Positions 2,157 through 4,754 of a stretch of DNA of 33,695 nt are shown in pieces. Position 1 is the first letter of the stretch; the number at the start of each line of letters is the position of its first letter. The DNA is taken from IMG/VR virus record IMGVR_UViG_2737471863_000001; one strand, given 5' to 3'. Position numbers and translations under genes: made by a program. Under the pieces are notes generated by a model. The model made no database searches. It had not been told where the DNA came from and worked only from the letters and a program-made list of their open reading frames with translations. Source of the DNA: a virus. Its lineage: Duplodnaviria; Heunggongvirae; Uroviricota; Caudoviricetes.

Positions 2157-4754
2157 CTACGCAACTCGTATAAACAGACCAATCATGACGCTGGCGGAAC
2201 CGGCAGACCCCAGTCCATTCCCCGACAATGCCCGGTATGTGCCTGGCATTCCGCCACCGGAACCCTGAACATACACAGAAACACTGCCGTTGTATTTAAC
2301 CCCGGTCCCGGTCGTACCGTAACACATCAATTCAACCGCACTCAGACGTGACCCAGGATAGCTGTAACCTCGCTTTATTCTGCGGTCCGGGTCTGCGTTT
2401 CCCTGGCCGTTATATGCCGCCAGTATCAGGCTGCCAGTGCCGTACCAGGTATCTGTAGTTCCGGGAGCAAGGCCGGACAGAAGAGCAATAATGTCCTGCG
2501 AGGTTACCTTCAGTGATTCCCAGTCAATGAGATAACCATTTCCTGTGGTCCAGTAGCGGTTGTAATAAATGTGGCCATTAACACCATAGAAAATAATCGC
2601 CTTTGCTGTATTTATCGGACTCGGTGTGGCATATCTGGACTCAATCCACCGAATACTGACAATCCCGCTGAACAGCACATTGGGTATAATTTTATTGCCA
2701 CCCTCAACAAAATATTCTCCTGGCGTGACCTGTTTTACCCACACCAGAAAATCATTTTCTGAGTCAAAGCGGACAGTTTCGTTTGTGTTGAATATACGCC
2801 CAAAACCGAAGGCATCGGGAAGTGCCAGCCTGCCTTCCGTCCTGTCGCGAATATCACTCTGTGGCTCCATTGTGGTCGCCGCGCCCAGCGTGATATCGCC
2901 CCCTCCGAGCACGGAATGCCCGTTGATGCGCATAAAATCACAGGCACGAAACTGTGGGATTTTTCCCCAGGCTGTAACGGATATGGCGGCGGCAACGTCG
3001 GCCACCGTGACGGCAGATGTCGCCCGGATTTGCAGGCGTCTGATGGCAGCCGTGGCTGCCGTCTGAGAAGTGGTAACCTTTGCCACAAAAGCAAAAAAAT
3101 CACTCATGGCAAACGTATCAATGCCGTCGTAATTTGCCGTGAACAGGTCCGGGTAAGCACTCTGTATGGCGTCCAGAACCTGCCTGCCGTACCGTTCCAC
3201 TTCTTCCTGTGTTTCCAGCACCCCAAAGCGCCACGGGGCCACAGAAAAACGGTCCTTATCAACAAAACGCCCTTCACCAGGCTCTGCCGGGTAATCCGTC
3301 TCGTTGTAATACGTCAGGAACCGTTTTTGTTCAGGTACAAACAACGCAAGCAGGCCAGCCCTGATGGTTTTCATGGCAGCGGTATATTCAGTTGCAGCAG
3401 TGGTATCTCCGGCAAGGTCAGCCAGTGTTTTCAGTGCACGTAAACCAGCATAAACCTCTGCGTTATCCTGACAAAAACACTGTGCATAAGCCCGGTCACC
3501 GGGTGCAAGATTGTGCTGGAATACGTTTACCAGACTGGCCACCGGATTTATTTCAGCAACGATATTGAACTTTGCCACCTGTTTTATGATTTCCCAGCGG
3601 CTGGACCCGCCGATTCCGGCTGGCTCCTGTAACCAGGCACTGTCCGCAAATTCAGCAATGCAGGCGAACCAGAGCGCCGGGTAGCTGTCCGTGGAGTCCG
3701 GCGCAACGGGGGTATACAAATCCGGAGCCACATCCAGAAAAAAATACTGCCATGCAGCCGGGATTCGGTTTGAGGGGCTTTTCAGGCACTCCAGCACAGC
3801 GGAGCCAGTCCGGACAAAATCTCCGGGGGCTACAGAGGTGATATCAGGCAACGTTTCCCCGGTGGTGCCCGCGATATTAACAAAAAAAAGCGTGCCGTTT
3901 ATTGTCAGGCGCTGCCCGGCTTCATAACGGCAACCGGTCATAAACGGAACCACAAGCCCCAGTCTTAACGCCTTTTCGCAAATTGTCATACGGTCACTGA
4001 GGGAAAAGCATTTTCCTTCACTTTCATACACGGCAAGAAACAGAAAATACCAGTTGATACCACCGTTCGCATTCAGGTAGCGCCACAGCCCCTCGTAGCG
4101 CCCGCTGTTTATCCTCAACGCCTGTAGCTGACGGTTCGCCTCTGTTACCGAATAACGGGTTGATACTGAAAGGTGGTCATGAATGAATCCCTGCACATGC
4201 CCTGCTGCGTCTTTCGCCTCCTGAGCACTCATGGCTGCCGCGGCGGCATTCTGCCCAACTTCTGAGGCCAGAGTTTCGACCTGCTGTTTGTCTTTGGCAA
4301 CGGCTTCTGCGTTCTGCTGAACACCTGCCGCCAGTTTTTTTATCTCTTCTTTTGCCTGGGCGGCTGCGCCTGCATGCTTCCCTGCCTGTCGTTCGCTTTC
4401 TGTTGCAGTTTCCGCGCTCTGCTGCGCCTGCTGTGCCAGTTCCTCGTATTTCTTCAGGGATTCCGGGCGCAGGTCAATATCGGTTGCGCCCAGAAAATCA
4501 TTCAGCGAACCATCCGCTGAATCTTCATAAACGCGGATGACACCGATTTCTGAAAGGCGCTGTACACTCTGCGTCAGGCGAACGCTGTACACGCCCGGCA
4601 GAACGGGGAAGTTATACTCCCCATTCTGTGTGGTGACGTGACTGAAAACACCTTTCAGAATCCCTGCACGGTTGTGCAGGGAGGTCAGTGTAATGGTTGC
4701 GCCGCCCAGCGGTTCTCCCGTGGGCGTTTTAATCACACCTTTAAGCTGCGGCAT
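2157..4754 (-). CDS. side tail fibre / tailspike-like protein: prophage tail-fibre N-terminal domain, Ala/Gln-rich coiled-coil collar, large unassigned C-terminal domain
   Basis: N-terminus MPQLKGVIKTPTGEPLGG...VIRVYEDSADGSLNDFL matches the N-terminal motif of E. coli prophage side tail fibres; start taken at ATG 4754 (GGAG SD) rather than track ATG 4781 (no SD). Stop TAG 2157-2159. Confidence 0.7.
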   Translation of the reverse strand: MPQLKGVIKTPTGEPLGGATITLTSLHNRAGILKGVFSHVTTQNGEYNFPVLPGVYSVRLTQSVQRLSEIGVIRVYEDSADGSLNDFLGATDIDLRPESLKKYEELAQQAQQSAETATESERQAGKHAGAAAQAKEEIKKLAAGVQQNAEAVAKDKQQVETLASEVGQNAAAAAMSAQEAKDAAGHVQGFIHDHLSVSTRYSVTEANRQLQALRINSGRYEGLWRYLNANGGINWYFLFLAVYESEGKCFSLSDRMTICEKALRLGLVVPFMTGCRYEAGQRLTINGTLFFVNIAGTTGETLPDITSVAPGDFVRTGSAVLECLKSPSNRIPAAWQYFFLDVAPDLYTPVAPDSTDSYPALWFACIAEFADSAWLQEPAGIGGSSRWEIIKQVAKFNIVAEINPVASLVNVFQHNLAPGDRAYAQCFCQDNAEVYAGLRALKTLADLAGDTTAATEYTAAMKTIRAGLLALFVPEQKRFLTYYNETDYPAEPGEGRFVDKDRFSVAPWRFGVLETQEEVERYGRQVLDAIQSAYPDLFTANYDGIDTFAMSDFFAFVAKVTTSQTAATAAIRRLQIRATSAVTVADVAAAISVTAWGKIPQFRACDFMRINGHSVLGGGDITLGAATTMEPQSDIRDRTEGRLALPDAFGFGRIFNTNETVRFDSENDFLVWVKQVTPGEYFVEGGNKIIPNVLFSGIVSIRWIESRYATPSPINTAKAIIFYGVNGHIYYNRYWTTGNGYLIDWESLKVTSQDIIALLSGLAPGTTDTWYGTGSLILAAYNGQGNADPDRRIKRGYSYPGSRLSAVELMCYGTTGTGVKYNGSVSVYVQGSGGGMPGTYRALSGNGLGSAGSASVMIGLFIRVA

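Follow-up and report, generated by a model that had tools for sequence, protein, structure and literature searches.

A predicted (alpha/alpha)6 barrel in the middle of a tail fibre encoded by a Mu-like Escherichia coli prophage

Enzymatic receptor-binding proteins of phages determine host range and are mined as anti-capsule and anti-biofilm enzymes. To our knowledge, almost all known enzymatic receptor-binding domains of phages are beta-helices or beta-propellers. The tailspikes of the epsilon15 phage group are normally enzymes, and the endosialidase tailspikes of K1 phages set a precedent for a globular catalytic domain other than a beta-helix on a trimeric fibre or stalk. Among computationally predicted phage depolymerases, the alpha/alpha toroid is known as a rare fold (~1%), found in 11 of 984 predicted depolymerase domains by DepoScope (PMC11326577) and in 29 of ~3900 domains in a survey of Klebsiella prophages (PMC12491483). 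Current depolymerase predictors are untrained on toroid folds because the examples are too few (PMC11326577), and our literature search found no experimentally characterised phage depolymerase with this fold. Here we describe a protein of 865 amino acids (aa) encoded at positions 2157..4754 on the minus strand of IMG/VR virus record IMGVR_UViG_2737471863_000001, a stretch of 33,695 nucleotides (nt) that is referred to as a whole as the window. The protein is best explained as a side fibre, the second tail fibre encoded by a Mu-like E. coli prophage, and it carries a predicted (alpha/alpha)6 barrel ahead of its distal tip.

Modules of the fibre and the barrel family

The open reading frame (ORF) 2157..4781 (minus strand) is open for 874 aa if it is read from an upstream ATG at 4781, and residues are numbered here in this 874-aa form (M1 = ATG 4781). 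The likely start, judged from the sequence, is M10 at ATG 4754, which is preceded by GGAG at a distance of 8 nt and overlaps the stop codon of the preceding gene, that for the tail fibre assembly protein (Tfa, 4741..5307); ATG 4781 adds nine codons that reach into this Tfa gene. The resulting 865-aa form ends with the stop codon at 2157-2159 and is equal to database protein P0035. An earlier note, made from the DNA letters alone, had described an 865-aa fibre with a conserved N-terminal anchor, a coiled-coil collar and one C-terminal domain of about 600 residues, possibly a tailspike-like, receptor-degrading enzyme. The intact reading frame, the anchor and the collar were confirmed. The anchor (aa 13-139; 4365..4745, minus strand) belongs to PF08400, the prophage tail fibre N-terminal family, with a score well above the gathering cut-off (93.5 bits, E 1.4e-26, cut-off 26.6). 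It is a beta-sandwich that also matches CarboxypepD_reg, and its sequence matches in the PDB are the “Tail fiber protein” 9e7m and the “Collar spike protein” 7kjk. It is followed by a linker recognised from its composition as an Ala/Gln/Glu-rich coiled coil (aa ~140-204; 4170..4364, minus strand): the segment aa 100-200 consists of 24.8% A, 12.9% Q and 11.9% E, with 2% F+Y and neither W nor C. The length of this coiled coil differs among homologues.

Behind the linker the composition changes to 11.9% F+W+Y and 1.8% Cys (aa 200-635), in line with the richness in aromatics and Cys that the earlier note had remarked on; the two motifs it gave as examples, CFCQDNAEVYAGL and WRFGVLETQEEVERYG, are present at aa 435-447 and aa 517-532. 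The fibre coding DNA is without meaningful tandem repeats, and the region is therefore not a simple repetitive shaft. However, the ~660 residues after the coiled coil are not one domain; they divide into two modules (aa 205-631 and aa 632-874) that are evolutionarily independent of each other. The first, the barrel module (2889..4169, minus strand), corresponds to the PHROG profile phrog_33169 of “unknown function”, which matches aa 195-632 with E 1.7e-216 over profile positions 144-581 of 842. In homologues this block of ~430 residues is preceded by varied N-termini and followed by varied C-termini, and it was found behind at least four N-terminal types other than the one described above. The boundary towards the tip is seen in a 992-aa fibre of E. 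coli AH19B041, which is 61% identical over aa 117-645 and in which the similarity stops just past the GGDIT motif at aa 631.

Few homologues of aa 195-640 were found. A word-indexed search of 5.8 billion proteins returned nine or ten clusters, and a HMMER search of 1.84 billion representatives with a family profile returned 141 clusters, 32 of them with E < 1e-30. Because homologues with 47-74% identity retain the whole barrel domain together with strong residue conservation, the barrel appears to be under purifying selection. One relative is P0004, whose gene in an epsilon15-like prophage is directly followed by those for a holin and a GH19 endolysin. Ahead of its barrel P0004 carries the tailspike N-terminus of epsilon15, SPN1S and phiV10 (56-69% identity over aa 1-225), and beyond this anchor it consists of the barrel and a C-terminal domain of ~110 aa. 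The identity of the anchor and the position of the gene before the lysis genes therefore indicate that the barrel replaces the distal part of an epsilon15-type tailspike, which we take to be normally an enzymatic beta-helix. One phage tailspike with a P0004-type anchor is annotated as a right-handed beta-helix repeat protein. Other family members have T7-tail-fibre N-termini or phage fibre repeats, and one has a K1-lyase_C domain. Among the more distant relatives there are signal peptides, a TAT signal and domains of the ricin-B lectin, F5/8 type C and Ig/PKD kinds, a set that by analogy resembles that of secreted carbohydrate-active enzymes. The stand-alone relatives P0050, on a phage-like contig, and P0048, beside ribosomal genes, gave no clue to a substrate from their context.

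The second module, the distal tip (aa 632-874; 2160..2888, minus strand), has its own set of relatives. The last 245 residues recur in 25 proteins (33-100% identity) with PF12571, PF08400 or PF03406 N-termini, most of which are E. coli prophage fibres of ~300-420 aa or fragments thereof, and tblastn matched phage tail fibres over aa 635-818, including those of rV5-like phages and Goslar. The AlphaFold2 (AF2) confidence for the tip was low or moderate. From these sequence relationships aa 632-874 would be an ordinary, widely shared receptor-binding tip. It is directly followed in the window by a gene for a DUF4376 protein of 188 aa (1583..2149, minus strand; PF14301, E 1e-16; phrog_1141). The same tip directly precedes DUF4376 in P2/HP1-like prophages (loci L007 and L008), and therefore the two form a cassette in which the DUF4376 protein is probably the assembly partner of the tip. 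Two tip homologues, P0030 and P0033, are named “shikimate transporter, partial” by NCBI, which is probably a propagated misannotation.

Predicted fold and conserved residues of the barrel

The AF2 model of aa 196-640, calculated from an alignment of 58 sequences from the HMMER search, has a mean predicted local distance difference test score (pLDDT) of 89.8 and a predicted template modelling score (pTM) of 0.89. In this model twelve helices in a double layer form a barrel of the (alpha/alpha)6 type, which can be superposed on solved structures of that fold. An independent model of lower quality, covering aa 196-874 from a shallow alignment, reached a pLDDT of 60 and did not resolve the tip; it led to the same fold class, its Foldseek matches being nearly all (alpha/alpha)6 glycosidases and phosphorylases of the glycoside hydrolase (GH) families GH52, GH94, GH78 and GH116. 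Thus, the barrel very probably adopts the (alpha/alpha)6 fold known from glycoside hydrolases. A tailspike-like domain, as the earlier note had suggested, is not what the models show. Neither a beta-helical nor a collagen-like shaft was seen in aa 205-631; the modelled structure consists of helices apart from a small beta insert, its structure matches are toroids, and Pfam gave no beta-helix or pectate-lyase match for the protein or for the barrel domain.

The beta-rich insert comprises aa 276-335 (3777..3956, minus strand), contains YEAGQRLTINGTLFFVNIAGTTG and GDFVRTGSAVLECL, is built of strands in the AF2 model and is, with its ~60 residues, constant across the family. Against viral structures in BFVD, Foldseek found no good match to the whole barrel, only short matches, many of them (55-90 columns) to unrelated phage tail-fibre proteins; we infer that these stem from the insert. 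The insert has a weak profile match to the chitin-binding domain of ChiA1 (1ed7, E 0.013), and Pfam assigned no carbohydrate-binding module family to the insert alone. The insert is possibly a carbohydrate-binding sub-domain of the barrel and may represent a widespread mini carbohydrate-binding module.

To assess conservation, all family hits were aligned to the profile (~137 representatives). Two acidic motifs stand out, DSTDSY (aa 362-367; 3681..3698, minus strand) just before an inner helix and QDNAEVY (aa 438-444; 3450..3470, minus strand) in the first turn of a long helix. The former provides candidate catalytic or substrate-binding carboxylates, the latter candidate catalytic ones. D365 is present in all 137 sequences and D362 in 133 of them, D439 in 135 of 138 and E442 in 130 of 138. 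N440, S363, Y367, W383, N406, F421, Q422, Y245 and F246 are conserved in more than 80%, and in the C-terminal half, which fewer sequences cover, D555, D/E561, R582, R586 and D595 are conserved. The fibre-borne copies retain D362, D365, D439 and E442 as well as Y367, W383, F421, Q422 and N440. In the model D362, D365, D439 and E442 lie at helix N-termini, and the motifs NWYF, DSxDSY and DNxEVY as well as a segment at about aa 511-520 mark, or slightly precede, the starts of alternate helices. Such a placement would fit a single pocket at one end of the barrel.

Proposed function and alternative explanations

On the basis of fold, conservation and genetic context, we propose that the barrel is a glycan-hydrolysing depolymerase module in the middle of the fibre, which would give the tip access to its receptor by clearing or processing a surface polysaccharide; we give this reading a probability of roughly 0.55. 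The fibre is composed of four exchangeable modules, namely the PF08400 anchor, the coiled coil, the (alpha/alpha)6 barrel and a distal receptor-binding tip whose folding is probably aided by the downstream DUF4376 protein. The barrel belongs to a rare, uncharacterised family, and in its architecture this family resembles GH15/GH63/GH8-type glycoside hydrolases, be they inverting or retaining. Three barrels would be arranged around the axis of the trimeric fibre and would bind and hydrolyse a host surface polysaccharide, be it O-antigen, capsule or another exopolysaccharide, using the candidate carboxylates D362/D365 and D439/E442 at the N-terminal ends of inner helices. Cleavage would open the way to the outer membrane, first for the distal tip and afterwards for the baseplate. 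Of the receptor-degrading enzyme that the earlier note had proposed, a prediction remains, carried by the fold, the near-invariant carboxylates and the tailspike-anchor context, and it covers only two-thirds of the region for which it was made.

Several points weigh against a hydrolase. The (alpha/alpha)6 barrel is also found in epimerases, lyases and terpene cyclases, the position of a barrel before a separate downstream distal tip is unusual, catalysis in this family is predicted, and the conserved residues could serve binding alone. The sole sequence link from the barrel to a known family is PF22422 (MGH1-like_GH), and it is borderline: the full protein scores 25.4 bits against a cut-off of 27, over 92 of the 356 profile positions (176-267). 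With the barrel domain alone the score is 27.5 bits (E 2.9e-6), with about a quarter of the profile covered. This match starts at the QDNAEVY motif and recurs weakly in other family members. Apart from it, no relative of the barrel in a CAZy family, Pfam or the PDB was detectable by sequence in the libraries searched. PDB searches with the whole protein and with the family profiles A2, A5 and A6 returned, even at E <= 10, anchor or chance matches only and hence no solved structure related to the barrel by sequence, and NCBIfam had no match for the fibre protein or four homologues. Membership in GH15, judged by a match in sequence to its members in Pfam or the PDB and by the two catalytic Glu of that family, was likewise not supported. 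The alignment of the family profile with E. coli GH63 YgjK by hhalign was not significant (probability 0.35%), so an attempt to map the catalytic Asp/Glu of GH63 onto the barrel motifs failed. The likeness of DSTDSY to the ESGRDD segment of YgjK is only apparent and is not used as evidence.

The main rival explanation is that the barrel descends from a glycosidase but is catalytically silent, acting as a lectin-like primary glycan-binding domain for reversible attachment, with the tip as a second specificity. A conventional distal tip is already present, hence an enzymatic step is not strictly required; the insert weakly resembles a chitin-binding domain, and the conserved Y245, F246, Y367, W383, F421 and Q422 would suit binding as well as catalysis. 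Catalytically dead lectin derivatives often lose their carboxylates, whereas D362, D365, D439 and E442 are kept in 94-100% of both the phage-borne and the secreted bacterial-type members. In addition, the barrel stands behind a tailspike-type anchor in the epsilon15-like prophage. We regard non-catalytic binding as unlikely, though as the strongest competitor of glycan hydrolysis. Considerably less probable is a polysaccharide lyase or another non-hydrolytic enzyme of the epimerase or phosphorylase type on the same fold. Toroids of the (alpha/alpha)n type do include such enzymes, and they appeared lower in our structure searches (the lyase 5noa, cellobiose 2-epimerases and phosphorylases). Lyases typically act on acidic capsules and colanic acid, and the one family member with a K1-lyase_C domain would also fit a lyase.

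The barrel module is very rare. Its DNA occurs in 7 of 5426 complete E. coli genomes, IMG/VR holds five loci with it, and a scan of species-representative genomes with two peptide patterns gave no confirmed locus. In RefSeq, the Prokaryotic Genome Annotation Pipeline (PGAP) calls the first ~117 codons alone, labelling them an “incomplete” pseudogene, and ~2.2 kb go without annotation in five complete E. coli genomes (window 2157-4400, corresponding to 4412655-4414900 of NZ_CP098231.1, and in four other genomes); these five near-identical copies have no annotated feature across the barrel DNA. Both rarity and pseudogene label would suit a purely structural knob, a decoy or a decaying recombinant relic whose barrel has no role in infection, which we consider very improbable since the 2.6-kb frame is intact and shows 99.8-100% identity among five genomes, a matching DUF4376 partner gene lies downstream, the divergent homologues mentioned above point to purifying selection, and the pseudogene call arises because the reference model spans the N-terminal domain only.

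Neighbouring genes and comparison with known systems

The source of the window is a Mu-like E. coli prophage; over the first 8 kb, the part tested, the window matches strain XJ34 with 100% identity. On the minus strand the baseplate genes gp46, J/gp47 and YmfQ are followed by a 331-aa fibre with a Caudo_TAP protein, the 865-aa fibre, DUF4376, com and mom; gp46, gp47 and YmfQ belong to the contractile-tail baseplate of the Mu-like phage. The first tail fibre is an intact ORF (5286..6281, minus strand; phrog_1833, E 3e-114), which in RefSeq is present just as a 198-nt pseudogene fragment, “phage tail protein, incomplete”. Its tail fibre assembly protein is the Tfa named above (4741..5307, minus strand; PF02413, E 1.4e-22; phrog_136). 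Window positions 1583-6281 thus hold two tandem pairs of fibre and partner, one of the Caudo_TAP and one of the DUF4376 type, and E. coli AH19B041 has the same two-fibre layout. No invertase gene was found in this interval around the two pairs. A Mu-type invertible G-segment around both fibre genes was considered and rejected, the inverted repeats being weak (73-84% complementary). At the prophage end a 167-aa ORF (1-504, minus strand) adjoins mom. It has a signal-peptide-like N-terminus, gave no match in family searches except a sub-threshold one to Pertactin, and may be a moron or cargo gene. Adjoining window position 1, mdtO is annotated with “missing C-terminus” (1741-2814 of locus L001 in NZ_CP098231.1), a truncation consistent with Mu-type transposition into the mdtNOP efflux operon.

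That a fibre can carry a depolymerase is well established, and the function discussed here is predicted; we consider the significance of the finding to be moderate. New is a depolymerase-like toroid domain from an undescribed family in an unusual position within the fibre. The barrel is well delimited, portable and confidently modelled, and belongs to a family of ~140 clusters with clear candidates for catalytic residues, which makes it a concrete target in the search for a new glycosidase specificity. The pseudogene label that RefSeq gives to an intact gene also points to a blind spot of annotation. More speculatively, a new glycoside hydrolase family could have in this barrel its first phage-borne member. 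The barrel would then be a depolymerase placed mid-fibre, with a specificity not seen before, directed at a surface glycan of E. coli or Salmonella, and it would cut before the separate distal adhesin binds; we put this forward only tentatively.

Compared with lambda Stf-type side tail fibres, the protein shares the PF08400 anchor (aa 12-112 are 41% identical to lambdoid side tail fibres), the coiled coil, the distal tip and a downstream partner gene. Unlike in these fibres, a globular barrel of 430 aa replaces the usual shaft, the partner is DUF4376 and not Caudo_TAP, and the host phage is Mu-like. The anchor is also of another type than that of the epsilon15, phiV10 and SPN1S tailspikes, which P0004 shares. 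K1 endosialidases differ from the predicted barrel in their beta-propeller sialidase fold, in their substrate and in their intramolecular C-terminal chaperone. Among solved structures of GH15, GH15-related and GH63-like proteins, the barrel was compared with dextran dextrinase 9ju0, MmpH 7qsj, glucodextranase 1ulv, glucoamylase 1lf6 and TTHA0978 2z07, and the identity is only 9-12%. In contrast to such GH15/GH63-like barrels, it has the motifs NWYF, DSxDSY, FQ and DNxEVY of its own, adds the beta insert of ~60 residues and is embedded in a phage fibre. With the class of predicted toroid depolymerases it has in common that a toroid carbohydrate-active fold replaces the usual beta-helix of a phage receptor-binding protein; unlike in that class, the barrel sits in the middle of the fibre and is followed by a separate tip.

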